Shown: positions 1 to 59,488 of the stretch, piece by piece
How positions within the stretch are numbered: the first letter of the stretch is position 1
How the letters are laid out: the number at the start of each line of letters is the position of its first letter
Origin: Dictyostelium discoideum
Lineage: Eukaryota
Reading direction: 5' to 3'
DNA length: 64,000 nt
NCBI GenBank assembly: GCA_000004695.1
Contig: CM000152.2
Coordinates: forward strand, 5,280,001-5,344,000
Program-made: the position numbers and the translations under genes
Notes under the pieces: model-generated
Database searches by the model: none
Told to the model about the DNA's origin: nothing
The model's input: the letters and a program-made list of their open reading frames with translations, nothing else

Positions 1-232
1 TCCAAATCACCTCTCAAATCAACATCCAAATCACCTCTCAAATCAACATCCATTTCACCTTCCAATTCACCATTTAAATCACCATTTAAATCACCTTCCA
101 AATCACCATTTAAATTACCTTCCAAATCACCATCCATTTCACCTTCCAATTCACCATTTAAATCACCTTCCAATTCACCATTTAAATCACCATTTAAATC
201 ACCTTCCAAATCACCATCAATAGGAAAAATCG
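1..232. repeat. Imperfect tandem repeat of an ~18-bp unit (tccaaatcaccatttaaa / tccaaatcaccttccaat), about 12 copies, starting at the window edge
   Basis: Periodic repetition visible directly in the sequence; it is coding-like in one plus-strand frame (see next feature). Confidence 0.8.
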
Positions 233-347
233 TTAATGTGATACCTTCAAAAAAAGTTGCAAAAACAAAGTCAACAAGGACACAAAAATTAGAACTTGAT
301 TTGGTTGCAATTAATAGAAGGGGGTATGGGGAAATTAGAAAATAAAA
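1..347 (+). CDS. Possible 3'-terminal coding fragment of a Ser-Pro-Lys repeat protein (…SKSPFKSPSNSPFKSP… then a unique tail IGKIVNVIPSKKVAKTKSTRTQKLELDLVAINRRGYGEIRK, stop taa ~345-347); the gene would begin upstream of the window
   Basis: Plus frame open from nt 1 for about 115 codons through the repeat, ending in a non-repetitive tail and a stop, followed by an A-rich tract. No similarity recognised. Confidence 0.3.
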
Positions 348-580
348 ACAAGTGGCCAAATCAAAAAAACAAAAAAAACACAAATCAACACAAAAAATTA
401 AAAAAAAAAAAAAAAATTAAAAATTAAAAAAAAAAAAAATTGAAAAAAATAAAAAAAAATTACATTTGTTAAAAAAAATAAAAAAAAATAAAAAAAAATA
501 AAACTTAAAAAAAATTGAAAAAACAAAATAAAAAAAAAAAATTGAAAAAACAAAATAAAAAAAAATTTCAAAAAAAAAGA

Positions 581-979
581 ATGATCGAAGAATTAATAGA
601 TTCGATAAAACTCTTAAGAAATTTAGCCATTGAATATGGCAATGAAGAATAGTTAGATTCAGAGGAAAATTTGACTAAATTCCTCGAAAAAGCAGCCAAA
701 GTACTATATGTAAATAGTGGTGATGCTTTAATCGTTAAAAATTCAAATATGATGTTAGAAGCATTAGAATTAAAATCAAAACAATTTCACCAACATTGTG
801 TAAAAACTGTAATAGAAAACGAATTATATTTGGACTTTTTTGTATACAAAGGAAAATGCAAAAACATCAAATGCACCAGAGGTAACAAAGCTAGAAAAAA
901 TTCAATTGTGTGCAGTGTTTACAGTGATATGGTAAATCAAGCAATTGAACAACTCAGGGAGTTAATAAAAATAAATTAA
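581..979 (+). pseudogene. ORF pair in one frame interrupted by an in-frame TAG (647-649): MIEELIDSIKLLRNLAIEYGNEE*LDSEENLTKFLEKAAK…IEQLRELIKIN; possible nonsense-disrupted gene or transposon-associated remnant
   Basis: ATG at 581 and the track ORF 671..979 (which starts at TTG) share one frame, separated only by TAG. No intron-like GT…AG interval fits. Product unrecognised. Confidence 0.25.
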
Positions 980-1120
980 TAAAAATAAATTAAAAAAAAA
1001 AAAATTGAAAAAAAAAAAAAATTAACAATAATAATAAATAAAATAATAATTAAAACAAAAAATAAAATTACAATTTAATAAACAAATAAAAATTGAAAAA
1101 AATTTAAAAAAAAAAAATTG

Positions 1121-1153
<33 letters not shown>

Positions 1154-1258
1154 AACAATAATTATAATAAAAATAAATAAAATAATAATTAAAACAAAAA
1201 ATAAAATTTCAATTTAATAAACTTTATTTGTTTTTTGAAAAAAAAAAAAATTTAAGGT

Positions 1259-1340
1259 CAGTGATTTTTTTTTTTCACTACGCTACTGTAGTGAAATTAA
1301 ATAATAAAATTCACTACGCTACTGTAGTGAAATTTTATGG
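1259..1340. repeat. Two copies of the near-palindromic 24-mer ttcactacgctactgtagtgaaat about 30 bp apart, preceded by cagtg
   Basis: Exact duplicate strings at ~1275-1298 and ~1308-1331. The core cactac…gtagtg is self-complementary. Possible transposon terminal or subterminal structure. Confidence 0.7.
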
Positions 1341-2399
1341 AAAATTCCCTACAACAAAGGATATTATCGATTATATCAATAATCATACACCGGAGAAAAA
1401 AACCTAAGAAATTTTACTATTTTGTGAGAAATTAAACTACCGCAAAAACACATATTTTAAGAAACGATATTATAATTTAATAAAATTTTTAACAAACTAA
1501 TATCAATTTCTAATTAATAATTAATCACACTTTATTATTAAATTATCATAAAATAATAAAAAAGAATCTTGCCATAATAAAAATATATTTTAATAAATTA
1601 AAAATTGATAAAATCTAATATTATTTAATTAAAATTGAATATTAATTTGTAATTAAATTATAAAAAATTTATTGATTTACCATATTGTGAGAAATTTTAC
1701 TATTGTAATTTCTCATTTATAAACATTAAACTATAATTTAATAAAATACAACAATAAATAGGAAATAATACTATTGTAATTTCTCATTTTTTAAAACATA
1801 AAACTATAGTTTAATATGATATTATATATTATTAAAAACTATAATAAAATGATAAAAAATAATGGGTGTACAATAAATATTTAAATAAAAAATATTAAAA
1901 TATAAGAATTTTTATTTTTTTTAAATAATTTATTCCTTATTTATTATTTGATATCATACCTTTACATAATGGCAATATTAATCTGTCTGAATTTTTACTA
2001 ACTAAATTTATTGGACATTGTGCCAAAAAAGCCAAATTATTTTTCTAAATTTTTATTATTTTTTTTTTTTAAGTTGTTTCATCAATTTTATTTATTCTAA
2101 TTTAATAATAAGTTTACTGATTTTATTAAAACAAATAATGAAAATTTACTTACTTTGGGAAAAAAAAAAGGTGAAAAAAAAAAGAAAAAAAAAATGATTT
2201 ACTCTTTGGGAAAAAAAAAAATTATGAAAAAAAAAAAAAATAAAATTAAAATATTGTGCGGATTGGCCAAATCAAACACTTTTTAATATTTTTTTTTTAA
2301 ATTTTTCAAACCAAACACTTTTTTTTTTATTTTTTTTTTTTTTTATTTGTTTTTTTTTTTTTTTAATTAAAATCCAATGAACAGTTCTTTGTTTTTAAT

Positions 2400-2830
2400 T
2401 AGAGAATTATCGATGGTGTCAATAATCTCATCAAGGAAGGACCCATGGGAATTACGTTCTCGGTAGAAATGTTCTTGATATAGCCAAAGAAACGCTCAAT
2501 GGGATTCAACTCTGGGAATAGGAAGGAAGAAATATCAATTGAACCGAATATTGATTAAACAATTCAAATAGTGCATTTAAAGCTTCGATACCACCGTGAA
2601 TTGGAGCATTGTCCATTACCAATAATAAACCAGGCTTGCAAAATCCACTTTCCAAAAGTTCTCTAACATATTGAAAGAAGTCTTCGGTATTATTGGTTTT
2701 ATCACGGATTTTATACAAACAATCATCCAAACAGATGGTGAAAAACCCATGTAGGTCTCAGAAATGCTGGTGCTATTAGTAACATAAACCGGCTCTCCAA
2801 TTGGTCCAACATCTTTAGATCTCCTTAATT
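2400..2830 (-). pseudogene. Tc1-like DDE transposase C-terminal fragment (…GLLLVMDNAPIHGG…FLPSYSP/ELNPIERFFGYIKN…), frameshifted
   Basis: Motifs DNAPIH and (Y)SPELNPIE match the second-D and third-acidic catalytic regions of Tc1/IS630 transposases. The reading frame changes by 1 nt near 2500-2510 and the ORF lacks the N-terminal half. Confidence 0.6.
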
Positions 2831-5532: not shown

Positions 5533-8500
5533 TTAATTTTTAAAAATATAGTTTATATGATTTTGAATCATTTTTTCATTAACCATTCCTCCTTCATATG
5601 AGTTCATTGATTGTAATAATTCTTTAGTTTTCTTTGAAACACCAAATCCATTACCCAAGTTATAAATATTATATAAATCATCTAATGAATGGAATGTTTT
5701 TAATTTTACACATGATAGAATCTTTGATTGATTAATGATATTCTTCCATTGTTCATATTCAACCATTTCACATCCATATTGCTTTTCCAAGAATGAGAAT
5801 GAAGGGTTCATTGCTGAAACTTCACTATTTAAACTATAGATATTTAATTGATTTGAAGATGATTTATTCCAACATTTTTCATTTCCAATCATTTTAATTG
5901 TATTTAAACTTATCCAACCAATTGGTGATGTTAATATGTTTTTATCAATTTTTGGATACTTTTTAACTGCATAACATGATTGAATAATTAATTGGAAGAA
6001 ATCAGAATCATGACCAATACCTGTTTCTTCATGTGAGAATATAATTGGTGGTCTAATTAACATTGATGGAATACCTCTTTTTGCTACTTCTCTTAATAAA
6101 TTTTCAACAACTACTTTACTTTTCATATAACCACCTGGTAAATTATTAATATTTTCAATTGTTGGTATTACTGTTTCTTCATCAAATTCTTTACAATTTG
6201 ATGCATTAAAGAATACTGATACTGAGCTAAATCCTACAATTGGTTTTTGATAATCACCAGTTGTTGAAAGTTTAATTAATTCAATGAAACCACCAATATT
6301 TACAACTTTACTCTCTTCATAATTTGATGCTAAATTAATATCGGCACCTGAATTAATTATTAAATTAATTTGATTTGAAATATAATCAAAATCTAATTTT
6401 GATAATCCTAATAATGGTGATGCTAAATTACCAACTATTACTTTAATTTTTGATAATTCAAATTCATTGTGAAAGTGATATAGTTTATGATGTTTCAAAT
6501 TATTAATTATAGCATTGATTGGATTTGGTTCTGATTTTTTATTTCTAATTAAACAATATACAACTGAACAATTTGGTGATTTAATTAAGTTTGATAATAA
6601 ATGAACACCTAAAAATCCGGTTGCACCTGTTAAAAATACTTTTGAATCATTTCTAAAATCAATTGGATTCATTTTAATTGCTTGAATTGATTCATCTAAT
6701 TTCATTTCATTTCTCCAATAGTCTAAAGTTGGTGCTGAATCTTTTTTAATAATATTTTTTGATTTTCCTTTAGTTTCATTTGAATCTAGTTTTTTGATTT
6801 GTTCTAAAATAGTTTGAATATTCATATCAATTGTATTATTTTGTAACTGTTGAAGTGTAATTACATTTGATTTAATATCTTTATCAATGAAATTCTTTAA
6901 TTGTACTGAAGTTAATGAATCTGCTCCATAATCACTTAAACGAATATCTGTGTTGATCTTTGATTGTTCAATTGATAAGAGTTCTGAAATTTTATTTAAA
7001 ATCTTTGTTTGTATACTTTCTGATACACTATTTTCACCACCATTACTATCATTATCTTTTTCTTTGATTGAATTTAAAATGAAATCTAATCTTTGGAAAG
7101 TTGATGTTTCTGATGATAATTTCTTAATTGAATCATAGTTAAATTTACTAACAATTAAGTTTGAATTTTTATTTGAATTTTGAAGTTGTAAATCTAATGA
7201 ACCTAAAATTATATTTGTTGGAATTGGAATGAAACCTTGATCATCTAACATTTTTGAAACTAATTCATTTCTTGATACAAAACCTGCTGATTTAATTGCA
7301 CCCCAATTTGTACATGTTGATGGTAAACCAATTGATTTACGATATCTTGATAATGAATCTAATACTAAATTTGCAGAAACATAACTACATTGGTTGAATG
7401 AGCCAAATAATGATGCAATCGATGATGCCATAACAAATTGTTTTAATTTCCATGATTTCTCAATTGAAATTTCATGTAAATTAATTGCACCCATCGTTTT
7501 AGCATTATGTGAAATATCTAATGATTCAATATCGATTTCTTCTACTTCTTTAGTTATTTGAGCGAATGCATAATGGAATATTGAATCAATGTTATCAATA
7601 TTTGGATTTTCTAATAAAATTTGATTAATTGATTTTCTCATTTCAATTGGATCACCAACATCTACACTCTTGAAATGGAATTTAGTGTTATTATCCTTTC
7701 TTGATATTGTTTTATTGATTAATAGTTCTAACTCCCATTTTAATGATGATTTTGATAAAATGATAATGTTTTCAAATGATTCTGTTGGTGAATATTTAAT
7801 TAACCATTTTAAGATTTCTAAAATAATACCTGATTGACCTGTAATAATTATATTTTTACCAATTATATTTTTTGTATCAATTTTGAAATCATATTTTAGT
7901 ATTGTGTGATTCTTTTCATTGTTATCTGATTCAATGAGTTGATTTAATAATCCATCACTACCGATACTACCATTTGAACAACTATGATCTAATACAATTT
8001 TACCAATATGTTTTCTTTGATTAATATATTCAATTGCTTCTTTGACATCTTCAATCTGGAATGTTGTTATTGGAATTGGTTTTAATTTGTTTTCATTTAA
8101 AGCATTTGAAATGGATTTTAATAATCTTGAAACTACTTTTTTATTAATATGCATAAGTTCAATATTATGATAACTCTTGTTAAATTTGAAATTGTTGAAA
8201 TTTAAAAATTCATTGTTATTTAAATGGGTAATTGAAAGATCAATGATTTTACCTCTTTCTTTTAAACATAAAAAGTTTGAATGTGTAAATTCATTTGGTA
8301 ATGTATTTATAATTAAATCTACTCCGTTGAATTTACCAGTTGTACCATAAAGTTGATTTAATTTTGATTTGATTTCATTTACATAGTTTTTATTTCTTGA
8401 TGAATAAATACCAGTTATGAATGATCCATAATTATCAATTAAATATTGTTCTTTATCTTTTGAACCTACTGTGACGAAAATTGGTGATTTATGACCTTTC

Positions 8501-11500
8501 CATTTTAATATTTCTAATGTTGCTAAACCAATACCACCTGTTGCTGAGTGAATTAAAATTACTTCATCATCATCGATATTAAAATTACCAATGTTGAACA
8601 TACCATGAAGACATGTTGAAAAAATGACTGGTAATGATGCTGCTTCAACATGACTAATATTCTCAGGTTTATGTGAAACATAAAGTACATCAGCTATAAC
8701 ATGTGAAGCGGTTGTGTCACAAGCTATACCAAATACATTATCGCCTACTTTAAATTCACAATTTTGATTCTCATTAGATATTCTTGTGATAATACCTGAA
8801 AATTCGAGACCAAGTGGATTTTTAGATATTGATACATTTTCATCAATAACAACTAAACCACGATAAATTAAATAATCTTTATAATTAATACCTGTTGCTA
8901 AAACTTTGACTTCAATTTGATTCTTTTTTAATTTCTTTGGTTTTGATGCTAATTTGTATTCTAAATTTGTTGAATCTAAGAGTGTCATAAAGTCATTATC
9001 TTCGAACGAATTTGAATTGAAGTTTGATTTTATATTCTTTTCATTCTTTAATATTTCATAATAAATTGAATTATTTCTAATTATATATTCTCTTTGAATA
9101 TGGTTATTTGAATTTTCAATCAATTGATTAATGATTTTATTTAATAATGATGATATTGATAATTGATTATCAAAATCGATTGAATATAGATTTAAACTTG
9201 GAAATTCATTAAAGTATCTTGCTGTACCTATTATTGATGATGATAAATAGTTTTTGATTTGTGAATCAATAGTAATTAATACATGTTTACATGTTAAACT
9301 ATGTTTTAAAAGTTGTTGATTAATTTCAATATATTCCATTGTAATTTGTTTGAAATTATTCATTTCTAATTGTTCCATTGATTTAATAAAGTAAATTATT
9401 GAATCATTTGTTATTGAAGGTAATAATTGATTAAATTCATTAATATTCGATATTATTGTTTGTTTGCAGCTGATATGATTATTTGAAATTAATTTCATAA
9501 ATTCATTTGTATATTTTGATTCTTTTTCACAATAAATTATAATATTATCATTTTTATTGTTTGGAACAACTGTTAATTCATTTGATAATATTGTTGATTT
9601 TTGTGATTGTATTACTTTATTTGACTTTTGAATTTTGTTTTCATTAAAACCTAAATTTATTAAACTATCGATATTGTATTTATCACCAATATCATCTCCA
9701 ATTATTAATAATAATCCATTTGAAGAAAGAATATTAAATATTGATTTGATGATTGTTTCATCATCACCATCATTATTATTATTAATGATAATATCATAGT
9801 ATGATGGTTTTAACTGGGTTATATCATTTTTAAAGATTAAACTTGAATCGTGTAAAGTTGGAAGTTTATCATTTGAATTATCAATAATTGTAAATTCTAT
9901 ATCGATTTCTTGTAAACTATTATCATCGAAAATTTGATTTAATGTTTCAATGATTTGTTTTGATAATTCTAAATCTGAAAATGATTGTAAAATTCTAAAA
10001 ACAATTTTTTCATTTATAATTGGTTTGATTGTTTGTTTAATAATTTCTGTAACTGTATTGCTGCTGCTGATGCTGCTAAAAGTTTGATTATTATCAATGG
10101 ATAAAATATTAACTAATGAATCTTTACATTGTAAATTATTTGTAAATAATTCAGTTGTAGGATTATTAATTAATAAACTATTAAGTAATGGAAGAGTTGA
10201 ATGTAAAGATATACAATCCATTTCTAACAACTTTGTACCATCTTCTAATAAAACTAAAACTGATGATTTATAGCTATCTGATTCCAAGGAGATGAATTTT
10301 GCTTGACAATAGATATTCTTATATTTTAATTTGTCAGTTGGTATATTTTCAGAATAAACTTTTAAACCTTCAAGTCTTTCAAATACAAACTGGCTTGAAT
10401 TTGTAATGAATCCAACTATAGTTTGTGAACAACTATCTAATAAAGCTGTATTGAAAAATGATTTATCGTATGTTTGATAAACTGGCTTACCATCGATATC
10501 AAAGTTTTCAGTGTTTACTTGAATTTTAGATATAATACAATCATTACCAAAATACAACTCTTCAATTCCTTGGAAAGCTCCTAAATGAGTGATTCCAGTT
10601 ATTGATCTGGAATGTTTGTAAACTTCTTGTTTTGAAAGGGTTGTAAAATTACATTCTGATAGCAATTGATTTATATCATATTTAGATGAGTGATCATTAT
10701 TATTATCTTTTAGTGATATAAGTTGAAAGTTACCAGTACATGTTTGAACCCATTGATTTGTTTTATTATCTTTTATGTTGAATGTAACTCTATAATCAGT
10801 GTTACCTAATTGATAAACATTGGTTTGTAAAGTATGTTTGACATTTTCTTTTAAAACAAATGGTGCTAAAAATTCCAAGTTATTAATTATAATATCTTGA
10901 TTTGGGTAAAGTTTCATAATATTATCAGCATATCCAATACCTGGGAAGTAATATTTTCCTTTTACAATATGGTCTTTTAAGTATTTGAATGGATTTCTAT
11001 TTATATCGATTATTGATTCATATGATTTGTTATTTGATGAATAGTTAATCATTGATTTACCTAAACTGTTGAAAACATTTGGTCCATTTAATCTATATTG
11101 TTCAAAGTTAATATCAACTTTCCAATAGTGTTGTTCGTCGAATTGATAGTTTGGTAAACTGATATTGACCTTGCTGTTTCTAATGGAACTGACATCATCA
11201 TCATTGTGATTGAATTGACACTTGAAGTTTACATCATAACCTAAACAATAAATTTGTGAAATTGTTGAATGAATTTCATCTAAATCATTGGAGTTCTTTT
11301 TGTTTGTTGATGTTAATACTGAAACTGAATTAAAGTAACTTGATGATTTTGGTATCATTTGTTTTAAATAAAATGATAAACTTGGATGTGGTGAAACTTC
11401 AATAAATATTAATTCATTACCAAGTTTATTATTTTCAATGTGTTGATATAAATTTGAAATAGTTTGAGAGAATCTGACAGGTTGTATTATATTTTCATAA

Positions 11501-12785
11501 ACATAACTTGAATTGAATGGAGTAGTTTCATGATTAAATAAATTAGTTGTAACTGTTGAAAATGTTGGAATTCTTGATTGTTTTGATGGTATATCTAATG
11601 GTAAAATTTCATTTTTAGTTGAATGTTGACTACTTGTGTGGAATGATGATAATGAACCTAAAAATGCGCAAAAGATATTATTTTCTTTTAAATTTAATGA
11701 TATCTCTTTTAAAATATTTTCATTACCTGCAATTACAATTGATGTTGGTGAATTATAGCATGCAACTTCAATTGTTGGGTATTTATTTGAATAAAGCTCA
11801 ATAAATTCTGAATGACTGATATTAACTGATAACATTTTACCACATCCATTTGTATTATTTTGAGAAATTGATCTGTGATAAATTAATTTACAAACTGTTT
11901 GGAAATCTACCATACCTGAACAATATGATGTTGCGATTTCACCTAAACTATGACCAACGATGAATGATACATTGATACCCCAATGTTTGTATAGTTCAAA
12001 TAATGATATTTGTAACATTAATATCGATGGTTGAGCGATTATTGGTTGATGTATTGATATAATATCATCATCTTTAATTGATCTTAATTTATCTAAAACT
12101 GAGTATCCATAGTATTTACTTAACTCTTTATTGAATTTGTCCATCGATGATCTGAATATTGGTTCACATTCATAAAGTTGTTGAGCCATTTTATTCCATT
12201 GTGAACCTTGACCTCCGAAAACAATAACAACCAATGGTTGATTTCTTTTAATTGTAATATTTGAGGATTTGTCATTATTTGTTTTAAAGTACTTGTTTTT
12301 AGTTTTTAATTGATCCCAATTACTTGAAATTAAAACTGATCTTTGATATAGTTTCTTTGATTTTGAGTAAATTTGATTCTTAACAAACTCTTTGAATGAA
12401 TTTGTTGAAATTTTAATATCATTTATTATTAAGTCTTCATAATTTTTTAATGATTTTACTGAATTGGCTGAAAATGGTATTAAAAATCTTTGTTGTTGTT
12501 GTTGTTGTGATTCGGCAGGATAACTATGACCATTACCATTTTGATTGATTGATTGTTCAATAAACTGTGATAAAATTAAACAACAATTTGAACCAGTTAC
12601 ACCAAAGTTGTTAATAACCATTGATACTGGTTTTTCATTATTATTTGTAAATGGTATTGCTTCTGTTACAACTTTAATATTCCAATCTTTAAAGTTAATC
12701 TTTGGATTTGGTTGATCAAAATTAACATTTGGTGCATAATGTTTATTTTTAAACATTAAACAACATTTGATTAATGATGCAACAC
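5533..12785 (-). CDS. Type I iterative polyketide synthase, exon 3 of 3 (end of KS, then AT, DH, ER, KR, ACP and a C-terminal NAD-binding reductase-like domain)
   Basis: Motifs in the 2407-aa ORF: GHSLGE (AT active-site Ser); MDR/enoyl-reductase-like block …[10 protein letters not shown]…; [14 protein letters not shown] (ACP phosphopantetheine Ser); [14 protein letters not shown] (Rossmann motif of thioester-reductase/NAD_binding_4-type domains). Acceptor aatag|GTGTTGCATC at ~12785 continues the KS as …SG|[18 protein letters not shown]. Confidence 0.85.
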
Positions 12786-12864
12786 CTATTAATATTTATA
12801 AAATGAAAAAAAGAGTTAAAATTAATGTTTTTTATTTTTTTTTTTATAAATGGTTACAACTTAC

Positions 12865-13329
12865 CACTTGCAGCTTCAGAATGACCAATATTAGATTTGA
12901 GTGATCCAATGAGTAATGGTTTAGATGGTGTTGATGTTTTCGATGAATTTAGAGCCATTGATACACCTTCTACTTCAATTGGATCACCTGTTGGTGTTCC
13001 TGTACCATGACATTCTACGAAACTAATATCTGATGCTTTCATATTTGCACTTTTCAATGCTAATTTGATATTATCAGATTGTGATTGTTTGGATGGTGAA
13101 TAAAAGTTTGATTTATCATTTAAACCACCTCCATCGACATTTGAACTAAATGAATTAATTACACAATAAATATTATTACCATCTCTAATTGCGTCTGATA
13201 ATGGTTTTAAAATTACAATACCACAACTCTCTGCACGAATGTAACCATCTGCTTCTGAATCAAATGGTTTACATTTACCTTTTTTACTTAGCATATTTAA
13301 AAATGAAAATGATTTTGAAATGTATGGAT
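12865..13329 (-). CDS. PKS exon 2 (ketosynthase C-terminal half: …[12 protein letters not shown]…[14 protein letters not shown]…GHSEAASG)
   Basis: KS catalytic His motifs HGTGT and GHSEAASG. Donor GTAAGT immediately after …AGT G; acceptor tatatag|ATCCATAC at 13329-13330. Confidence 0.8.
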
Positions 13330-13427
13330 CTATATAAATAAATGTATATAATAATTAAAAAAAAAAGAAAAAGAAAATTGAAGAATAAAAATAAAATAAT
13401 AAATGTTTAAATTCTGAATTAACATAC

Positions 13428-14049
13428 CAAGTAATAAACTGACACCACCCACAATTGATAGATTTGAAGTACCATTTTGAATTGATTGAAAACCCATTGC
13501 AATTGAATTCAATGATGAAGAACATGCTGTATCAATTGTCATTGATGGACCTCTGATATCATATGAAAATGATAATCTATTTGAAATGGTATGAAGAACA
13601 TTTGATGCGAAATAATTTTCAGATGTTTCATTAAAGTCTCTATTTGTTGTTGAATAATCTAATGTTGAGCAACCAATGAAACAAGATGTATTTGAACCTC
13701 TAATATCGATTGGATCGATGAATGCATCTTCTAATGCTTCCCATGTACACTTTAATAGTAATCTTGTTTGTGGATCCATTAGGGGTACTTCTGATGGATT
13801 GATTGCGAAATGAACTGGATCGAAATCACTCCATTCTTTTAATGGTAATAATCCACCAAATTTATTATTAACTTCACCGAGTAAATTGATATTGTCACTC
13901 CATCTTTCTGATGTTTCAACAATACCACTGAATCCATTCTTTAAATTATTCCATAAATGTGAAACACTACCATTATTAATTGATTCTTTACCTTGTGGAA
14001 TTCTAAATCCAATACCTACAATTGCAATTTCTTTGTTTTCTAATTTCAT
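13428..14049 (-). CDS. PKS exon 1 (start [20 protein letters not shown]…; KS active-site Cys in [10 protein letters not shown])
   Basis: The first in-frame ATG is at 14049-14047; the track ORF starts at an upstream TTG. KS N-terminal motifs present. Donor …GGVSLLL G|GTATGTT at ~13428. The three exons total 8340 nt, i.e. 2780 codons including the stop. Confidence 0.75.
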
Positions 14050-15247
14050 TTTTAATATTTCCAAAATAAAGTAAATTATATAAAATTATTATCAGAAAAA
14101 TAAAGTTATTAAAAAGGTATTTGTTATTAATATTCCAAATAAAAATAAAAAAAGATTCCATTTAAATAAATTATAAAAAAAAAAAATATGTAAATTAAAA
14201 AATTGATTTTACACACATACTCACATATAAACATATAATATATTTAATTAAACCAAAATATATTAGCTGTTTTGAAATAATCTCAAACTTTTCATCGTCA
14301 AGAGCAAACCATTGGTTGTTAATTTTATTTTAATGAAATTGTGATTTGTAGATGATGAGTAGATTTTATTTTTTAAAAAAAAAAAAAAAAATAAAAAAAA
14401 AACGTCTGGGTAGTTTTAAAAAAAAAAAAACACCTGGATGGTTTGAAAAAAAAAAAGTGTAATAGGGAGGTAAAGGGAAAAAAAAAAAATAATAATAATA
14501 AACTAAAATAAAAGGAGAAAAAAAAAACAAGAGTGGGTGAAAAAAAAAAAAAAATAAAAAAAAAACAAAATTTAAAAAATATCTATGTTTTTCTTTAATA
14601 GATCTTTTAAAATGGGAAAATAAAAAAAAAAAAAAACTAATTAAGATCTTGGTATTAAAAAAAAATCTCCACAGCAAAAGGGTTAAAAATGAATATGTTA
14701 ACACAGATTTGGGTGTAATTTTTTAAAACTAATAAGAGGTATTTCAAGAAAAAGCCTCTTTAAAACTATATATGGGTTTTTTTTTTTAAATCCTTTAATA
14801 AATTTATTTCCTTATCGATATTGTAAAATTATTTTTATTTTCGGGATTATTAATCTGACATTATAATTATTATTATTTATTAATTTTTTTTTCTTTTAAT
14901 ATTCTAAAAAATACCTAATAATTTCATAAAATAATTTATCATTTAAAAAAAAAAAAATTACAAATAAAAAAATTTAATCAATAAATTAAAATTTTAAAAC
15001 ATTTAATTTTTTTTTTTTTATCAAATTATGCGTGGTGTTTTTTTAAAATATCTTTTTTTAATTTTTTTAATTCTGAGAAAATAATTAAAATAATGAAAAA
15101 AAAAAAAATTTTATTTTTTATTTTATTTTTTTTTTTTCTATTGTTAAATTTTTATTCTTTGGTTATCTTTTTTTTTTTCAATTCTATTAAATTTTACCTT
15201 TTTTTTATTTTTTTTTTTTTTATATATTATTATTATTATTATTAAAG

Positions 15248-15465: not shown

Positions 15466-16587
15466 ATGCATGTTATTCAAAATAATGAATATTGTATAAT
15501 TGAATCACCAGTTATTAGAGATCAAGATAAAAAGACAGTATTGGTTGATAAATACGGACAAGCAAAATTAAAACATGGATCAAGAGAGATTAGATTTGAA
15601 AGTGGGGAACCATTTCCATTGTATCCAGGTGAGAGTATGATCGGAAAGATATCACCATTGACAGTGATTTTAAATAATGAAGCCATCGTAATTAAAGCGT
15701 TAGTTGACTTTTTGGACACTGAAACTTCTAAACTTATTTCAGCAGGTGATGAATGGTTAATGTATGGTCCAGCAACTTATAAACCACGTGTAGAAGAGCA
15801 TGTCAAAGAAATTAGAAAAGCATTCATAGTGAAACCACACAACGCTTTGAAAATCATGGCAACCAATGATTTCAAAGATAAAGTCTACAAACAACAACGT
15901 AAATCAGGTGATGAATGGTTGATGACTGTCGAAGGACCATACATTCTAGATGCTTATGAAAAGTTGGTGGAAATCGTTGAGCCATATGTATTGGATGATA
16001 ATAACTCAATCCATGTTGCTGCCAATAGGAAGTTTGTAGATTCGAATGGTGTCGAGAGAAAAAAAGGTGATAAATGGTTACTCACAAAACAAGACACCAC
16101 TTTATTCATCCCTCAGCCATCTGTCACCGTTGAGAAGGTTGTGCCTGTGACTGTGCTAACCCAGTTGAATTATGTTATTATTAGTGATCCGTATGATGAG
16201 GAGACCGGTGCACCTTTGTTGGGTGAGAAAAAGATTGTTAAAGGTCCAAAGAATTTCTTTCAAAAACCTGGTGAGACTTTAAGCATTATTCAAAGTACTT
16301 ACATTTTGGAACCAGAGGATGCAGTTTATGTAAAGGTTTTAGAAGAATTTGAAGAATCTGTTCGTTCTGGAAATACTCTAAAAAATGTAACTAGAAAATC
16401 AGGTACTAAATATTTAGTCTATGGTCCATGTGAATACGTACCACCATTAACTGTACAAGTATTAAAGAAAACTAAAGCTATCATTTCAAATGAACAATTT
16501 GGAATTTACATTTTTGATTTGATGCCTGCTTTAAATGTTTTTGTAATTTTATTAATCTTTTATTTAATTTTAAAATTCTTTTTTTAG
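15466..16587 (+). CDS. MVP homolog exon 2, covering MVP repeat domains only (GDEWLMYGPATYKPRVEE…, GDEWLMTVEGPYILDAYE…, GDKWLLTKQDT…). MVP similarity ends near 16520; the last ~20 codons are a hydrophobic low-complexity tail before the stop
   Basis: Clear collinear similarity to the MVP N-terminal repeats. The conserved shoulder and cap-helix regions (about 400 more aa in canonical MVP) were not found downstream; 16590-17060 is A/T homopolymer. Confidence 0.75.
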   Translation: MHVIQNNEYCIIESPVIRDQDKKTVLVDKYGQAKLKHGSREIRFESGEPFPLYPGESMIGKISPLTVILNNEAIVIKALVDFLDTETSKLISAGDEWLMYGPATYKPRVEEHVKEIRKAFIVKPHNALKIMATNDFKDKVYKQQRKSGDEWLMTVEGPYILDAYEKLVEIVEPYVLDDNNSIHVAANRKFVDSNGVERKKGDKWLLTKQDTTLFIPQPSVTVEKVVPVTVLTQLNYVIISDPYDEETGAPLLGEKKIVKGPKNFFQKPGETLSIIQSTYILEPEDAVYVKVLEEFEESVRSGNTLKNVTRKSGTKYLVYGPCEYVPPLTVQVLKKTKAIISNEQFGIYIFDLMPALNVFVILLIFYLILKFFF

Positions 16588-24534: not shown

Positions 24535-25020
24535 ATGTTATTCACATTTGAATCTAGAATGGAAAGAGTTGTTAATCCAAATGTTACTAAAAATTTTTTA
24601 GCTTGTCAACCTAATACTACTATTATTAATTGGTTATTAAAAATTCATCAAAAAAATGAACATTTAAAAAAATTAGTTGATATGTTTTCAGTCAACCAAG
24701 AATCTAGAGCCAAATCATACTCTGATTTAAATTTACCACATCAATTTAAAAAAGGTTGGGTTACTTTAATGTTAAATAGATTTCATTTAATTAATCAACA
24801 ACTGCAATTTAATATCACTAATAATAATAATAGTATTGAAATGAAAACCTACCAAGATTTATTTAAAGTGACACTCCCAATTTCATATCATTTCTATAAA
24901 GCAATATCAATAAAAATACCCAATGATCCTATCAAACAATCATTGTCAATTTTTGATAGAGAGTTTTCAATTGATCAATTATTTAAAGAATATTATCCAA
25001 ATTTAAAATTTGAAGAATTA

Positions 25021-25080
<60 letters not shown>

Positions 25081-28000
25081 TTAACAATTTTTGAAGAAAT
25101 TGAAGAAATAATTTTTATTAGTAAATTGGAAGATTTTAAAACATCAAATGAATTGGTAAAATGGTTTGAATTAATTTTTGAAATTAATGAAAAAGAAAAT
25201 ATAAAGATTAGATTGGACGACTCATTTTTCAAATCAAAGAAATTAACATTGGTAAAACTTTTCAAAGGTAATGCATCATTTGAGTTGGTGAATAAATTTA
25301 TTAGAATTACAAATTTAAATATTGAAAATTTAAATTCCTATCAAATTGGTGATAGTGAACCAATTCTTCATAGAGTTATAGAGAATATTGATTCAAATAA
25401 TTTAAATATCATATTGGATCAAATTAAATTCATAGTTAATATATTAAATGTTTCAGTTGATTTAAAATATAATGATGATACAGTTTTGGATTTATCAGTC
25501 CGTAGAAATCAATTTGAAGTTTTTAAATTATTACTTAGTTTGGGTGCTGGTAAAAATTGTAAATCTGAATTAATTATAAATTACTACCAATCATTTTCAC
25601 CTAATCAAAAAAGGGAATTCAAGCCATTTTTACAATATCTTTATAATACAAATCAAAGGGTAGCATTTAACATTTCTTTAAATACATTATTAAAACCATT
25701 GGATTCAACTACAACTATTAATAATAGTGATAATGGTAATAGTAGAGCAAATAATATTATATCAATTGTTCAAGGTGGTAAAAGAATATTAACCGATCAA
25801 CATTATAATTCATTATTTAGTAAAGATGGTAAACCAATTAAACCAGAAAATCAGAATGGTAAAAGACCAGTTCCATATATTCAAGATGAATATGGTAATT
25901 GTATATTTTTTAAGTTTGAACCACAATTTCCAAGTAACGAGATTGCTATTCATTCATTTTCCGAGTTTCTTGGATATGAACAATGTTCACCATGCTGTGT
26001 ATTGGCATCAATTAATGGTGAGCCAGTGTTGTTAATTCAAAAGGTATTGGGGATAGAATTAGTTGAGGTATTATATAAAAAACCTGAATTACTTAATCAA
26101 ATCGATCAGTTCAATCTTCATATGCAATTTATTATTTCAATGTTAATTAATGACGGTGATGGAAATTTAGCAAATTCATTTTTAGTTGAAACCAATTCAA
26201 GTGATCCAAAGAAAAAGTATAAATTACAAACTATCGATAGGGAACAAGCATTAATGCCACCTATAACCAAATCAATAAAATCATTAAAATCACAATTCAA
26301 TAAAACATTACAAGCTGAAGATGTATTATTATTATTTGATCAAATGAAAGATCCAATTGATAAAAAAGTTATTGAACATTTTAAAGGTTTAGATATTGAT
26401 GAAGTTTGTAAAAATTGGTTAGATTATTTAAAAAATTTTCATGAAGCTTCCATATCGCATTTTGAATCAAATAGAAAACAATTAAGAAAAACAAAGAAAA
26501 CAATGGTTGGAATTGCATTTGGAGGTGATATGATGAATAGACTATATTCCAAGTTGGCTCGTCTTCAATATTATTTACAATTAACAAGTGAAAATGAAAA
26601 TGGTCATATTCAAATTAAAAATCATATAGATTTGCTTGAAAAATTAGAACCAACCATTGCAAATAAAGTAAAATCAATAATTTTTAATGAATCATTAAAA
26701 CCAATCAATAAAAGATTTGAAAGATTAAGGTTAATAAATGAGACTGAACATAATAAAAACTCATTATCATCATCATCATCAAAAGATGATATTAAGGTAA
26801 AATTGGCGAGATCTATGAATCCTTCATCTCATTTATTAGAGTCTTTAGATATTCCAAATGCACACTTAATATATAAAGAAATATGGAAAGGTAAATATGG
26901 ACCAAAGAAAGCATTAGAACAATTTGAAAGGATGAAAATTAAATATTCAAATATTCAAAAAAAATTTGAAGCATTTGAAAGTGGTAATTTATCTGAAGTT
27001 TCAGATTTTCATTTAGAAAATTATTTAAGGTTAATAGATTTTAAAGAACTTTCAGAAGAACAACAGAATTTGATTTTCAATTCATTTTATCAAAGAGAGA
27101 TGAGGTTTTTCTCTATTAGGAATAGTTCTTTATTTTCTTTAAAATCAATCAGACAACCATTTAATTTTAATGGTCTCATAGAGATTGAATTTTTAAATTG
27201 CAGTAATTTGGATTACATTGGTGATAGTGGTTTCTCAATTGGCAAAAAGGCATTATCACTTCCATCTTTAAAGATTTTAACTTTAGTCAATTGTTCAAAT
27301 TTAACTATGGTTAGGATAGATTCACCACAACTTAATTCATTCACAGAGTATTCATGTTCCAAACTTGTTCAACTCAAAATAAAAGCACCAAATATTGAAA
27401 CTATAAAATTAAAGAAATCAATTACAAATTATAATATCTTATCAAGTTTTTCAAATCAGTTTAAATTTAATGTTCACTTATCTGTAGATAAAAAGGATGA
27501 TGAAGCTTATTTCACTTTTAGATTTACTAATCAACTTCAAATTGAAACAAACATTTTATCATTTAGATCTAATAGAGATAAACATTTTGAAAATAATAAA
27601 AATAAACCACTAGAAATTAGTATAATCTCTTCAATTGTTCAGAAATTAATAATTAATAATCAATCAATACCTCTTGGTACGATGGTTTCAAATGAATTAG
27701 AATCACTTGAATTAAATAATATTAAATCACCATTAGATATAGGCTCAATCCCATCATCAATAAAGGATTTATCCATTTATAATCCTTCAAATAGTATAGA
27801 ATCATTTAAACCAGGAATGATTCCAAATGGAGTTGAAACACTTCGTATTGATTGTAGTCAACCATTAGAAATTTATTCAATTCCTTCTAGTGTAAAGAGT
27901 TTACATCTCTTTAATTTAAATGTTTCATTGATTCCAAATTTAATTCCTTATGGCGTAGAGTTCTTGTACCTTTATAATTTTAAGAAAACTATAGAGATTG

Positions 28001-29508
28001 GATCCATTCCAAACTCTGTAAAGTATTTTACAATTCATAATGGTTTAAGTCAAGAATTAATACCTGGAATAATTCCAAATAGTGTTACCAATTTAGAGTT
28101 GTATGATATTGAAAATCCATTAATGGTAGGGTCCATCCCAAATTCTGTAACAACTTTAACAATACACAAAGGGTTTAGTCATAAATTAACGGCTGGAATT
28201 ATTCCTGATAGTGTTTTAAAACTTTGTTTAGATTCAATTATAGAGCCATTGGAATTAAATTCTATACCACATTCAGTGAAAGAATTAATTCTACATTCAG
28301 GATTTAATCAACCTTTAAATAATATTACCATTCCTTATGGTGTAGAAAATCTTCAATTACATAATACAGAAAAGCCATTAGAAATTGAATCGATCCCCAT
28401 AACTGTAAAGCATTTAACGATAAATGGATTTTATCATCCTCTAACTTTTCGTATAATTCCAAACTCTGTCGAATATCTTAGTTTATATGATTTTCAAAAA
28501 GATTTATATATACCAAATTCCATCAAGTCTTTAACATTAGCAGGTAGATTCAAAGAAAACTTTGTGGTTGGAACTATACCATCATCAGTTGAAATTTTAA
28601 AGATTCTTGATGATTTCAATCAAAGGTTATATTCAGGAATCATTCCAGATCATGTTAAATATCTTCATGTCCATAACATTATGTATCCATTAACAGTTGA
28701 TTCTTTCCCAAGATCTTTAAAAATTCTATCTATTCACCGCGGTTATAGTTTCCCATTGGAGCCAGGTACATTTCCCATTAATCTTGATTCCTTACATATA
28801 TATGACATTTCTTTTCCTTTGGTTAAAGGATCAATTCCAAACTCCACACTTCAATTAAAAGTATTCGATTTCAGACACCCTCTAACTGCAGGTATTATTC
28901 CAGAGGGCGTCGATAATATTGAACTTCATAATGTGAAAGGTCCTGTTAAGGTTGGATCAATTCCAAAATCAACTATTACCCTAAATTTAAACAATGGTTT
29001 CAATCATCCTTTAGTACCAGGTCTCATTCCTGATGGTGTTCGATACCTTTACATTAATGGTATAAAAAAAAAACTTCAAGTTGGATCAATACCAAAATCA
29101 GTTTTTCATTTAGCATTTTTAGATGACTTTAATCAAATATTGAAAGAAGGAATTATAGGTTCAGGAGTTGAATTTTTATTTTTTGGGAATTTAAAACAAA
29201 GATTAGAAATTAGATCTATCCCAAATTCAGTTAAAGGTTTGACATTAAAAAATGGGTTTAATCAAGTTTTATTACCAAAAATAATTCCAACAGAACTTGA
29301 AGTTCTATATTTGTATGAAGTTGGGAATCAAGTATTTCAATATGGATCAATACCTCACACACTCAAAGAAATTAAGATTTATAATGAATTTAATATACCA
29401 CTTAATCCTTGGATAGTACCTGATGGCATCAAAACTCTTACAATTCAAAATCCTTCTTTAAAAACTGAAAATATATCATGTAAAACCAAATTAATGGAAG
29501 AAGATTAA
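24535..29508 (+). CDS. FNIP-repeat-containing large protein (1657 aa). The C-terminal ~750 aa are tandem FNIP-type ~22-aa repeats (…GSIPNSVKxLxLxNGFNQPLxxGIIPxGVxxLxL…); the N-terminal ~900 aa are unassigned, with a possible ankyrin-like stretch and a possible atypical-kinase-like region, not established
   Basis: Repeated FNQ/FNH/FNIP…IP motif in about 30 units, typical of the Dictyostelium-specific FNIP repeat; literal FNIP near the C-terminus. Confidence 0.7.
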
Positions 29509-29985: not shown

Positions 29986-34608
<4,623 letters not shown>

Positions 34609-41662: not shown

Positions 41663-41734
41663 TCCTCATTGGTGTAGTCGGTAACACTCTAGTCTCTCAC
41701 ACTGGTACCCCGGGTTCGATTCCCGGATGGGGAG
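41663..41734 (+). tRNA. tRNA-Glu (anticodon CUC), 72 nt, followed by a T8 Pol III terminator
   Basis: Folds by inspection: acceptor TCCTCAT/ATGGGGA; anticodon stem CTAGT/ACTGG with loop CTCTCAC; T-arm CCCGG-GTTCGATT-CCCGG; discriminator G; then cttttttttt. Confidence 0.85.
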
Positions 41735-41765
41735 CTTTTTTTTATCAAAAAAATTTTAGATTACA

Positions 41766-45919: not shown

Positions 45920-45990
45920 TGCGTATGCCGGGAATCGAACCCGGTTCAACTGCTTGGAAGGCAGCTATCATACCACTAGACCACATACGC
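45920..45990 (-). tRNA. tRNA-Gly (anticodon UCC), 71 nt
   Basis: Minus strand GCGTATGTGGTCTAGTGGTATGATAGCTGCCTTCCAAGCAGTTGAACCGGGTTCGATTCCCGGCATACGCA. Anticodon loop CTTCCAA; acceptor GCGTATG/CATACGC. Confidence 0.85.
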
Positions 45991-53551: not shown

Positions 53552-53580
53552 TCTGATCTAATTTAGTTCTGTAAAAAGAT

Positions 53581-53661
53581 CGACACCTGCAGGGTTCGAA
53601 CCTGCGCCTCCGAAGAGAACGCCTTAGCAGGGCGCCGCATTAACCACTTTGCTAAGGTGTC
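53581..53661 (-). tRNA. tRNA-Ser (anticodon GCU), copy 1, 81 nt with long variable arm
   Basis: Minus strand GACACCTTAGCAAAGTGGTTAATGCGGCGCCCTGCTAAGGCGTTCTCTTCGGAGGCGCAGGTTCGAACCCTGCAGGTGTCG. Anticodon loop CTGCTAA; acceptor GACACCT/AGGTGTC; T-arm GCAGG-TTCGAAC-CCTGC. Confidence 0.85.
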
Positions 53662-54599
53662 ATCACAAAAGTTTTGTTTGACTCACTTTATTAAAATGTC
53701 ATCTCAAACTATTTGGGGTGATACACTTTGCTTAGGTGTCACCGTGACAACAACATCAAACTCAACCTTCAATTCAAACAAATTATCCAGAACAACAACA
53801 ACCAAAATTAACACAATTAACATCAATTGAGATCTCTGCAAACTTGATTTTAGTAAATTTCTCTAAAATTTTATTTTTTTTACTTTTTTTTTCCTAGAAA
53901 TTAATTTTCAAATTTTTTTTTTTTACCTTGGAGGTTACCAAGATTTATTTTTTGTAACCTTCCAGTTTTTTTGAGTTTTTTTGAGTTTTTTTTATTTTTT
54001 ATTTTTTTTTTTTCTTAGTGTGTGTTGTTATAAAACAAATGTGTTCATATTTGTTTTAATTTTCCTCTCTTTTTTTTTTTAGTGTTTATTTATTTTTATT
54101 TTGTGTTCATTCTAACCAAGTCAAATATAAAAAGAAAAGAAAAAAAAAAAAAAGAAAGAAATAGAAAAAAAGAAAAGAAAAGAAAAGAAAAGAAAGAAAT
54201 AGAAAAAAAGAATAAAAATAATAATAAAAAAACTTTACAAATCATGTGAAAATAATAATAATAGTAATAAATCTGCTTTTATAAATTTTTTTTATTAAAT
54301 TTAAATAAAAAAAACAAATTAAGAATATATTTTTTTTGTTTTATTTTTAATTTTGAAATTTCATTTGATTTTTTCTCAAATAAAAGTAAATTATTTTTAT
54401 TTAAAATTAATTATTTGTTATCGAATAAAAAAAAAATTTAATTCAAAATAAATGAAAGTGACAATTCAAATTTATTATTTTTAAATTTAGTTTATTTTTA
54501 AAATTTACTTTTATAAACATTAAAAAGACTTGTTTTCAATTCAATGTAAAAATTTTCAATAAAAAAAACATTCATAATAAATTTTAGATATTGTCGATA

Positions 54600-54885: not shown

Positions 54886-55121
54886 TGGATTAACAAGATT
54901 GATATATGTCCATCTGTGTTAATACGAGTTTTATTTAATATTTATTTAAAGGCTTATCATTTAAGCTGAAGGGTTATTTTAATCATATGAATTGATCAAA
55001 AGATATAATATTTGGGAGAGATGATTCTGGTCTACATAATGGTGATGTTTTTGTATTATTTATTTATTTTTTTACAACAGGAGTCGAACCTGTTATTATG
55101 TTTTGAATTTTGGAAAAATTT

Positions 55122-55202
55122 CGACACCTGCAGGGTTCGAACCTGCGCCTCCGAAGAGAACGCCTTAGCAGGGCGCCGCATTAACCACTTTGCTAAGGTG
55201 TC
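55122..55202 (-). tRNA. tRNA-Ser (GCU), copy 2, identical to copy 1
   Basis: Identical 81-nt sequence. ex-B box GGTTCGACTCC (minus) at 55080-55090. Confidence 0.85.
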
Positions 55203-55249
55203 ATCGAAAATAAAATGGGAGATACACTTTCCTAAGGTGTCATTGAATC

Positions 55250-57950: not shown

Positions 57951-59365
57951 AATAAACCACCACAAGACTAATTTTTTGATAAATAATTTTTTTTTTATAG
58001 TTTTTATTGTTTTTTTTATTTTTTTTAAGAAAATGTGGCTGAATAATAATTTTTGAAACTATATTAAAATAAAAAATAATTAAAAAAAATACAAAAAATA
58101 AAAATAATCAGTAAAGTGATTTATATTTTTAATTTATAAAAAAATATAAAAAAAATGAATATACATTCTGCAAACTCGATTTGACTCCATTTGGTTTCTA
58201 ATTGTCTTAAAAATTATTTTTTTTATTTTTCCTTTTTTTTTTTCTTAATTTTTTAAAAAATAACAATAAATCTTACCCTATCAAAATTGTTATTTTTTTT
58301 TCTATTTTAGGATTTATTACATATTTAATTAATATAATTACTTTATTACTATTGTATTTTACAGTTGTAGTTTTTTTTATATAAGATGGCTCGAGATGAG
58401 TAACTGGACTGTCTAATTTTAGGAATTTAAAAAAAAAAATAAAAACTATTCAGAGAACCCAATTTCATTTTTAATTTTTTTTTTTTTTTTAGGGAGTTTA
58501 ATTCAAGAACAATTATAAACCATTTTAACTAATAATAATATAAGTTTTTTTTTTTTTTTATAATATTTTATAATATAAGTTGTTTTTTTTATTTTATTTT
58601 ATTTTTTTAATTATAATTAAATTTGTTTTTGAAATGCAGTTTTATTTAAAAATTCTAAGGTTTTTTCAATAAACTTTATTGAAAAATTTAGGGGAGTTAT
58701 ATGGCCATATATTTTCCTTAATGTCATGGTGCATAGATAAATCTTTCCTTTCTCTGACTTTAGATTAATATTGATTATTTTTATTTCCCTTTGGATATGA
58801 TAGTATTGATATGAACATTGATGTTTTAATAATACACATTTTTCAGCATTTCTATTGTAAAACAACACTTCTATTTAATTTAATGTCACATTTCATCAAC
58901 ACCAATATTTAACTTAAATTTTTTTTTTTTTTTTTTTTTTTTTGATTTTTTTTTTTTTTATAATTTTATTTTAATTTTTTTATATAAAAAGATATAATTT
59001 TTTTTTTTCATTTTATTATTAATTTAAAAAGGTAAAAAAAAAAAAAAAACATTTAGTAAAAACTTTACTTAAATAATCATGTTAAAAATTAATATCTATT
59101 AAATATTTATTTTATTGATGACCTCATTAAATTCAAATTTTAATACAGTCAACGGAGATCGAAGTGCCTGTATCTTAAATTGTGCTCATTAACAAACAAT
59201 TTATATAAAATCTTGTTCAGATTTGTTTATCTTGTTAATTCGTTTTTTATTTTTGTTACTAACATACTATTGATCTACAAATAGTAATAGTAAGCATTTT
59301 ATTTTTTCCAACAGGAATCGAACCTGTTATTCAGCTTTGAATGTTGGGAAATTTTTGCAAAATTT

Positions 59366-59446
59366 CGACACCTGCAGGGTTCGAACCTGCGCCTCCGAAG
59401 AGAACGCCTTAGCAGGGCGCCGCATTAACCACTTTGCTAAGGTGTC
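59366..59446 (-). tRNA. tRNA-Ser (GCU), copy 3, identical to copies 1 and 2
   Basis: Identical 81-nt sequence. ex-B box (GGTTCGATTCC, minus) at 59314-59324. Confidence 0.85.
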
Positions 59447-59488
59447 ATCCAAAACCAAATGGGAAATACACTTTGATAAGGTGTCATC

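Follow-up and report, generated by a model that had tools for sequence, protein, structure and literature searches.

Many polyketide synthases (PKSs) of Dictyostelium discoideum carry a further enzyme at the C-terminus. A 2025 survey by cryo-electron microscopy (cryo-EM) and AlphaFold placed an offloading enzyme after the acyl carrier protein (ACP) in 21 of 40 D. discoideum PKSs, and 19 of the 40 end in probable monomeric thioester reductases (PMC12828403). A terminal reductase is a common feature of this family, not an unusual one. Thioester reductase (TR, or R) domains are enzymes of the short-chain dehydrogenase/reductase (SDR) type with a Ser/Thr-Tyr-Lys triad, and release their substrates as aldehydes or primary alcohols (bioRxiv 10.1101/2023.05.23.541938). 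Just three pks genes have a characterised function (PMC12625978), and products are named only for Pks1 (StlA), Pks5 and Pks16 (PMC12828403). In the literature that we searched, we encountered no TR-terminated D. discoideum PKS with an assigned product. Here we analyse pks21 (DDB_G0282029), a gene on the minus strand of a 64,000-nucleotide stretch of the D. discoideum genome (assembly GCA_000004695.1, contig CM000152.2, positions 5,280,001 to 5,344,000; "the window" denotes this whole stretch). We hold it probable, at about 85%, that the product of pks21 is an intact type I PKS, iterative, highly reducing and resembling a fatty acid synthase (FAS), with reductive release of its product and the domain order ketosynthase (KS), acyltransferase (AT), dehydratase (DH), vestigial methyltransferase (psi-MT), enoylreductase (ER), ketoreductase (KR), ACP and TR.

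Several described systems resemble pks21 in part. The nearest is Pks19 (DDB_G0282027, UniProt Q54T36), which has the same KS-AT-DH-psiMT-ER-KR-ACP-TR order and lies on the same strand in the same tandem array. The two proteins are 93.8% identical overall and 98-99% identical in KS and AT; pks21 departs from Pks19 mostly in the DH (88%), the ACP (89%), the linkers and the C-terminal subdomain of the TR (90%). Many other TR-bearing paralogs (Pks9/36 and Pks6 among them) have kept a Pfam-detectable methyltransferase, unlike pks21. The principal FAS of D. discoideum, Pks16, studied by cryo-EM, shares the dimeric FAS-like KS-AT-DH-MT0-ER-KR-ACP core with an inactive methyltransferase (MT), but lacks an offloading domain past the ACP and has a known function, fatty acid synthesis (PMC12828403).

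Outside the Dictyostelia, the TR domain is best matched in both sequence and structure by the R domain of MxaA (4u7w/4w4t), from the myxalamid hybrid of PKS and non-ribosomal peptide synthetase (NRPS). Like the pks21 domain it follows a carrier protein. It differs in being bacterial, in following the peptidyl carrier protein (PCP) of an NRPS, in having Thr at the position of pks21 Ser2550, and in an identity of only ~25%. The Streptomyces coelicolor thioreductase 8v1x (E 3.4e-23, TM-score 0.83-0.86) follows an ACP and terminates a type I PKS, as in pks21, but is part of a modular bacterial PKS; it stops at the aldehyde, an illustration that sequence does not reveal whether release takes two or four electrons. 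Among protist type I megasynthases, reductive release of acyl thioesters has been shown for the R domain of Cryptosporidium parvum CpFAS1 and the TR domain of Toxoplasma TgPKS2 (PMC2995488; bioRxiv 10.1101/2023.05.23.541938), the former reducing very-long-chain acyl thioesters (C20-C26) (PMC2995488). Both are modular, multi-module enzymes, and are likened to pks21 here by description, not by sequence. The Toxoplasma domain (TgTR) uses NADH, and its Asn-Tyr-Lys triad is atypical, in contrast to the canonical Ser/Thr-Tyr-Lys of pks21.

Gene structure and identity of pks21

The sequence reads as a single minus-strand gene across 5533-14049, with the ATG at 14049 and a TAA stop at 5535-5533. The list of open reading frames (ORFs) contains a 2407-codon ORF at 12756-5533 and, ahead of it, two shorter ones that lie in different frames. 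An open frame of 7.2 kb in DNA of ~22-30% GC is not a chance ORF. The gene is divided as follows:

13428-14049, minus strand: exon 1, codons 1-207 and the first base of codon 208 (spliced translation, exact protein match)
13330-13427, minus strand: intron 1, 98 nt, GTATGT..TATAG, phase 1, in the N-terminal domain of the KS (codon 208)
12865-13329, minus strand: exon 2, codons 208-363, both end codons partial (spliced translation)
12786-12864, minus strand: intron 2, 79 nt, GTAAGT..AATAG, phase 1, in the C-terminal domain of the KS (codon 363), just after GHSEAASG
5533-12785, minus strand: exon 3, codons 363-2779 and the TAA stop (ORF list, spliced translation)

The exons have ~25-30% GC, compared with 11% in intron 1 and 13% in intron 2, and the borders of both introns are canonical. 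The spliced coding sequence of 8340 nt corresponds to 2779 codons and a stop, with zero internal stops. An earlier sequence-only reading of this DNA had proposed a three-exon gene of 2779 codons at 5533-14049, and splicing and translation confirmed the coordinates, the exon count and the length. It had also placed both introns inside the KS; codons 208 and 363 do fall within the Pfam matches ketoacyl-synt (6-254) and Ketoacyl-synt_C (262-386), and every motif it quoted was found in the spliced protein.

All 2779 residues of the spliced translation agree with DDB_G0282029 of D. discoideum AX4 (XP_001733001.1, EDR41070.1). The same 2779-aa protein is UniRef100_B0G138 / UniProt B0G138, "Probable polyketide synthase 21", and it is identical in a second D. 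discoideum assembly too. The paralog, which the sequence-only reading had left to a comparison with the catalogue, is pks21 (100% identity over 2779 aa to DDB_G0282029 / B0G138), a member of the catalogued D. discoideum pks1-pks45 set. The gene, its name and the type of its terminal domain are already in databases and in the 2025 survey, and are not new. Figure 4A of the survey marks the PKSs without an MT domain or lid, and its supplements do not mention Pks21 (PMC12828403). The discovery value is small, and the worth of the locus is that of a well-defined target for product discovery.

Terminal thioester reductase domain

The terminal domain begins ~45 aa past the ACP in the Pfam scan, and extends to the end of the protein:

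5536-6642, minus strand: terminal thioester reductase (TR/R) domain, aa 2411-2779, including a C-terminal substrate subdomain (Pfam PF07993, matches in the Protein Data Bank (PDB), AlphaFold2 model)

The Pfam match is to NAD_binding_4 (PF07993, aa 2414-2645, E 2.8e-46). The domain contains T2415GATGFLG, Arg2443, Ser2550 (aligned to the Thr of MxaA), Tyr2582 and Lys2586, the last two in GGYMKSK. A phmmer search against all PDB sequences gave the terminal reductase of MxaA (4u7w) as the best match (E 1.6e-34), followed by the S. coelicolor type I PKS thioreductase (8v1x, E 3.4e-23) and then by R domains of carboxylic acid reductases (CARs); further matches were archaeal and Mycobacterium tuberculosis NRPS R domains. 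In the alignment with MxaA, TGATGFLG, the Arg [(I/V)R], the S-(S/T)-V-S-V strand and GGYxxSK are all in register.

An AlphaFold2 model of the domain, built on 25 dictyostelid sequences, had a mean pLDDT of 89.4 and a pTM of 0.92. The top matches of this model in a Foldseek search of the PDB were all R/TR domains: MxaA (4u7w/4w4t, TM-score 0.82-0.87) and 8v1x (TM-score 0.83-0.86), and after them CAR and NRPS R domains. These alignments are ~400 columns long, and so reach past the Pfam match to cover the C-terminal substrate subdomain.

Among the 25 dictyostelid TR domains, the glycines of the Rossmann motif TGxxGxxG are near-invariant (Gly2416 in 25/25, Gly2419 in 24/25, Gly2422 in 24/25), as is the triad (Ser or Thr at position 2550 in 24/25, Tyr2582 in 24/25, Lys2586 in 25/25). 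Arg2443 is kept in 23/25. In a per-domain comparison, the identity of the TR core to its homologues equals the level of the other catalytic domains. Sequence, predicted fold, conservation and selective constraint together identify aa 2376-2779 as a constrained, catalytically complete thioester reductase. The C-terminal NAD_binding_4/thioester reductase domain claimed from motifs alone is thus borne out by the Pfam match, the MxaA match and the TM-scores, and both its triad (Ser2550/Tyr2582/Lys2586) and its Rossmann motif are intact.

Domain architecture and catalytic residues

A Pfam scan of the 2779-aa protein gave the order KS, KS-AT linker, AT, DH, ER, KR, ACP and NAD_binding_4, which matches the order KS-AT-DH-ER-KR-ACP-terminal reductase previously read from motifs. 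The domains upstream of the TR are:

12715-14034, minus strand: ketosynthase domain, aa 6-386, spanning both introns; Cys176 (DTACSSS), His315 (HGTGT), His357 (GHSEAASG); Pfam ketoacyl-synt (PF00109), aa 6-254, E 4.4e-63, and Ketoacyl-synt_C (PF02801), aa 262-386, E 6e-31
aa 388-485: KAsynt_C_assoc, Pfam E 1e-10
11314-12222, minus strand: acyltransferase domain, aa 551-853; Ser642 in GHSLGE, Arg667, malonyl-type signature SFH745TS; Pfam Acyl_transf_1 (PF00698), aa 551-853, E 1.9e-39
10204-11031, minus strand: dehydratase domain, aa 948-1223; His968 in HxxxGxxxxP, Asp1146 in DxxxQ; weak Pfam matches to PKS_DH_N / PS-DH (PF21089, E 4.5e-06; PF14765, E 0.008)
7990-8925, minus strand: enoylreductase domain of the MDR type, aa 1650-1961, with the NADPH motif GGxGxA; Pfam ADH_N (PF08240), aa 1650-1718, E 6.3e-07, and ADH_zinc_N_2 (PF13602), aa 1849-1961, E 1.5e-12
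7291-7851, minus strand: ketoreductase catalytic domain, aa 2008-2194; Lys2125, Ser2150/2151, Tyr2164, Asn2168; Pfam KR (PF08659), E 1.4e-27
6769-7038, minus strand: acyl carrier protein domain, aa 2279-2368; phosphopantetheine-attachment Ser2319 in GADSL; Pfam PF23297 (E 1.8e-31), also PF00550

The integrity of the residues was judged from an alignment of pks21 with nine dictyostelid homologues. The catalytic residues of KS, AT, DH, ER, KR and ACP are all kept in pks21. The Cys-His-His triad of the KS (Cys176/His315/His357) is complete, and its motifs are conserved among the paralogs. The SFH745TS signature suggests that the AT is specific for malonyl units. In the DH, the Tyr of the YGP motif, which has a functional role in such domains, is replaced by His1096 (codon 1096, 10495-10497) in pks21, in the neighbouring third array copy described below (P0003) and in the D. 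firmibasis homologue (P0010), its two close relatives in the alignment; the other dictyostelid paralogs in the alignment retain the Tyr, apart from a Phe in Pks45. Dependence of D. discoideum PKSs on DiSfp has been reported (PMC12625978).

Mutated KS or AT residues, which would have marked a pseudogene, were not seen: the catalytic residues are intact, and the overall ratio of nonsynonymous to synonymous substitution rates (dN/dS) is 0.18. The sequence thus argues that pks21 is an intact gene, not a pseudogene.

Vestigial methyltransferase

Between the DH and the ER, alignment of pks21 with MT-bearing paralogs (P0017, P0057, P0081) delimits a remnant:

9589-10068, minus strand: vestigial C-methyltransferase (psi-MT), ~aa 1269-1428

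No Pfam methyltransferase match was found in pks21, even when aa 1226-1648 were scanned alone at E<=10. The MT-bearing paralogs Pks9/36 (P0017) and P0081 have ~130 additional N-terminal residues and the motif RILEfGGGTa; these residues are deleted in pks21. In the alignment, motif I for binding of S-adenosylmethionine (SAM), ILEfGGGTa in the MT-bearing paralogs, corresponds to ILQSFS--DLE in pks21. Their VMSNVLHV segment corresponds to INNNNDGD, and the C-terminal MT region is partly deleted. A cryptic active methyltransferase was considered and ruled out by the missing Pfam match, the destroyed motif I and the deletions. Of the C-methyltransferase that the sequence-only reading had suggested looking for at this position, the Pfam scan and the paralog alignment reveal a truncated remnant and no functional domain; pks21 is, as far as its sequence indicates, devoid of a functional C-methyltransferase and of the SAM-binding motif.

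A degenerate MT is also present in a D. discoideum paralog clade (P0011), in D. purpureum (P0052, 43% identity) and in Acytostelium (P0110, 35%), which points to an old loss of the MT.

Selective constraint

The dN/dS ratio was calculated by the Nei-Gojobori method for pks21 versus its D. citrinum homologue, per domain. This homologue may be a co-ortholog (tandem arrays and apparent gene conversion occur in both species), and the ratios are indicative only: AT 0.106, DH 0.115, KR 0.122, ER 0.145, TR core 0.176, whole exon 0.176, psi-MT plus KRs 0.235, and TR C-terminal subdomain 0.457. These values suggest that the TR is under purifying selection, like the other catalytic domains. The annotation that would result is a clean and testable one, with a dead MT and with all other domains, including the TR, predicted to be competent.

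Tandem array and third copy

A single contig of another D. discoideum assembly, GCA_054883475.1, encodes proteins identical to those of pks19 and pks21 in AX4; there, pks19 is KAM9950443, pks21 is KAM9950446, and a third copy (P0003) is KAM9950444. At this locus (L001), pks21 is followed by a 124-aa gene and then by P0003 (2762 aa as annotated), which starts 4.77 kb past the pks21 stop on the same strand and is 94.4% identical to pks21. At least three copies stand in tandem in D. citrinum, and the pks19 cluster has at least five members in one assembly of D. cf. discoideum.

Relative to pks21, P0003 has a 4-nt deletion (one TCAA unit) in the KS-AT linker (L001 ~24750-24815), which shifts the frame into a stop. 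The annotated gene model bridges the deletion with an "intron" of ~35 nt, implausibly short for Dictyostelium. From its sequence, P0003 is probably a pseudogene. It could be "pks20"; among the database matches listed, it has no entry from AX4 or UniRef. We know of no pks20 in the UniProt catalogue.

The nucleotide identity of pks21 to P0003 is a mosaic (window 8796-14053 versus L001 23279-28517). A 600-nt segment that contains intron 1 (13753-13154) is 100% identical, most of the KS and AT are at 97-99%, and the DH falls to 82-91% in its C-terminal half (10763-10164). This pattern suggests gene conversion within the array, with the DH, the ACP and the linkers as the diverging parts.

Between 24059 and 1357, the window matches GCA_054883475.1 at 99.95% identity; below 1357 the two diverge completely (L001 22692-28517). 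The divergence at ~1357 reflects either structural variation or a difference in assembly. Window positions 1-1356 are unrelated DNA. A GDL(E/N)G-type repeat lies there at 1-220 on the minus strand, and a small ORF (102 aa) at 671-979 gave no Pfam match. The spacer downstream of pks21 is very AT-rich. A 74-aa ORF fragment in it (2506-2730, minus strand) matches DDE_3 transposases with E 4.5e-06, just below the Pfam cutoff, and looks like a decayed remnant of a DNA transposon. The fragment is also present in GCA_054883475.1, where it is annotated as a 124-aa gene.

Proposed chemistry and alternative explanations

In the reaction sequence that we propose, the AT would load malonyl units, and the KS would extend the chain iteratively on the phosphopantetheinylated ACP (Ser2319). 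The KR, DH and ER would reduce the beta-carbon in most or all cycles, and C-methylation would be absent. The finished acyl-S-ACP thioester would be cleaved by the TR through hydride transfer from NAD(P)H (Ser2550/Tyr2582/Lys2586), and the product would leave as a long-chain aldehyde or, should a second reduction follow, as a primary alcohol, and not as a free acid. Our best inference from the sequence is that the chain is largely reduced and unmethylated when it is released, as an aldehyde or primary alcohol. Chain length, the degree of reduction per cycle and two- versus four-electron release are not predictable from sequence, and two- and four-electron TRs in general are indistinguishable by it (bioRxiv 10.1101/2023.05.23.541938).

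Several points weigh against this proposal. In particular cycles, an iterative PKS can leave domains unused (PMC12828403), so a saturated chain is not secure for pks21. The replacement of the YGP Tyr by His1096 might alter or weaken dehydration. The C-terminal subdomain of the TR evolves faster than the rest (dN/dS 0.46). No tailoring enzymes that would hint at downstream chemistry were found among the neighbours in the window when a biosynthetic cluster was sought, and a full-text search of the literature collection used here found no paper that mentions pks21, DDB_G0282029 or pks19.

The alternative that survives best is a sub-variant of the proposed chemistry and differs from it in biological role alone. 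Here pks21 would be a fatty-alcohol- or fatty-aldehyde-forming FAS in lipid metabolism (for example, of wax, ether lipids or spore-coat lipids) and not the maker of a signal or toxin. The complete KR/DH/ER set, the absence of methylation and the FAS-like architecture common to Pks16, the main D. discoideum FAS, are consistent with such a role. So are the Cryptosporidium type I FAS, whose terminal R domain is specific for acyl thioesters of C20-C26 (PMC2995488), and the disfp- mutant, which loses lipid features beyond the vegetative phase (PMC12625978). However, the lineage-specific PKS expansions in D. discoideum and D. purpureum were read by their authors as ecological chemistry (PMC3188802), and tandem arrays of the pks19/21 type, as found in D. 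citrinum and D. cf. discoideum, fit this pattern of expansion. We regard the lipid role as possible, and would not favour it at present.

Equally tentatively, the pks19/(pks20)/pks21 family may be a dedicated eukaryotic lineage of fatty-alcohol- or fatty-aldehyde-forming FASs across the Dictyostelia. The homologues in D. purpureum (43%) and Acytostelium (35%) also have the architecture of a psi-MT and a TR. If such a lineage exists, its unmethylated, fully reduced and reductively released lipids would serve a developmental or ecological role. The copies differ mainly in the DH, the ACP and the C-terminal subdomain of the TR, and these differences could adjust chain length or unsaturation.

A reading in which pks21 arose by recent tandem duplication, is redundant and is turning into a pseudogene, intact by chance and either silent or functionless, is improbable. 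The array is dynamic, pks19 is 93.8% identical, the third copy in the other assembly has the frameshifting 4-nt deletion, and the mosaic of 82-100% nucleotide identity among copies suggests gene conversion, all of which would suit a redundant copy. Against this, the frame of pks21 is open over 8.3 kb, the catalytic residues are all conserved, the overall dN/dS versus the D. citrinum homologue is 0.18, the protein is identical in a second assembly, and pks21 is among the 40 PKS genes called functional (PMC12625978). Pseudogene status of pks21 itself was considered separately, and was rejected on the open frame, the intact catalytic residues and the dN/dS. With a neighbour as similar as pks19 (94% identical), a phenotype of pks21 would need both genes to be knocked out.

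The least probable alternative concerns the terminal domain. Non-reductive R-like domains exist in fungal tetramic-acid synthetases and in some fungal PKS-NRPS enzymes, and R* (Dieckmann cyclase) domains are defined by loss of the catalytic Tyr and/or the nucleotide-binding motif. That the pks21 domain is such a non-redox R*, carrying out a Dieckmann/Claisen-type cyclisation or having a purely structural role, so that the product is neither an aldehyde nor an alcohol, is very improbable: function is not provable from sequence alone and the C-terminal subdomain is the least constrained part of the TR (dN/dS 0.46), but pks21 retains TGxxGxxG, Arg2443 and the full Ser/Thr-Tyr-Lys triad, Tyr2582 included, all of them near-invariant in 25 homologues, the closest solved structures (MxaA and the S. 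coelicolor PKS TR) are true reductive R/TR domains, and a fully reduced product would presumably lack the 1,3-dicarbonyl required for Dieckmann closure.

Neighbouring genes in the window

A tblastn search found no second PKS in the 64-kb window. Upstream of pks21 are genes of a housekeeping type, for a vault-repeat protein, a pinin/SDK protein, an NSUN2-type RNA methyltransferase, an FNIP-repeat protein and an SNF2 helicase, three of which are:

15466-16587, plus strand: 373-aa ORF containing only major-vault-protein repeats (Vault, E 2e-51; Vault_2, E 4e-25)
24535-29508, plus strand: 1657-aa FNIP-repeat protein, 14 repeats, E 1.9e-87
29986-34608, minus strand: 1540-aa SNF2-family helicase

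The vault-repeat ORF is divergent from pks21, with ~1.4 kb between the two starts, and its product is 420 aa in the other assembly. The FNIP-repeat protein and the SNF2 helicase are apparently unrelated to polyketide chemistry.

The distal half of the window contains five tRNA genes:

41663-41735, plus strand: tRNA gene
45920-45990, minus strand: tRNA gene
53580-53662, minus strand: tRNA gene
55121-55203, minus strand: tRNA gene
59365-59447, minus strand: tRNA gene

The set comprises Glu(CTC), Gly(TCC) and three Ser(GCT). The Ser copies have identical Rfam scores and lie 1.5-4 kb apart, and their likeness suggests a local duplication of tRNA-Ser. In Dictyostelium, tRNA genes are landing sites of the TRE retrotransposons.

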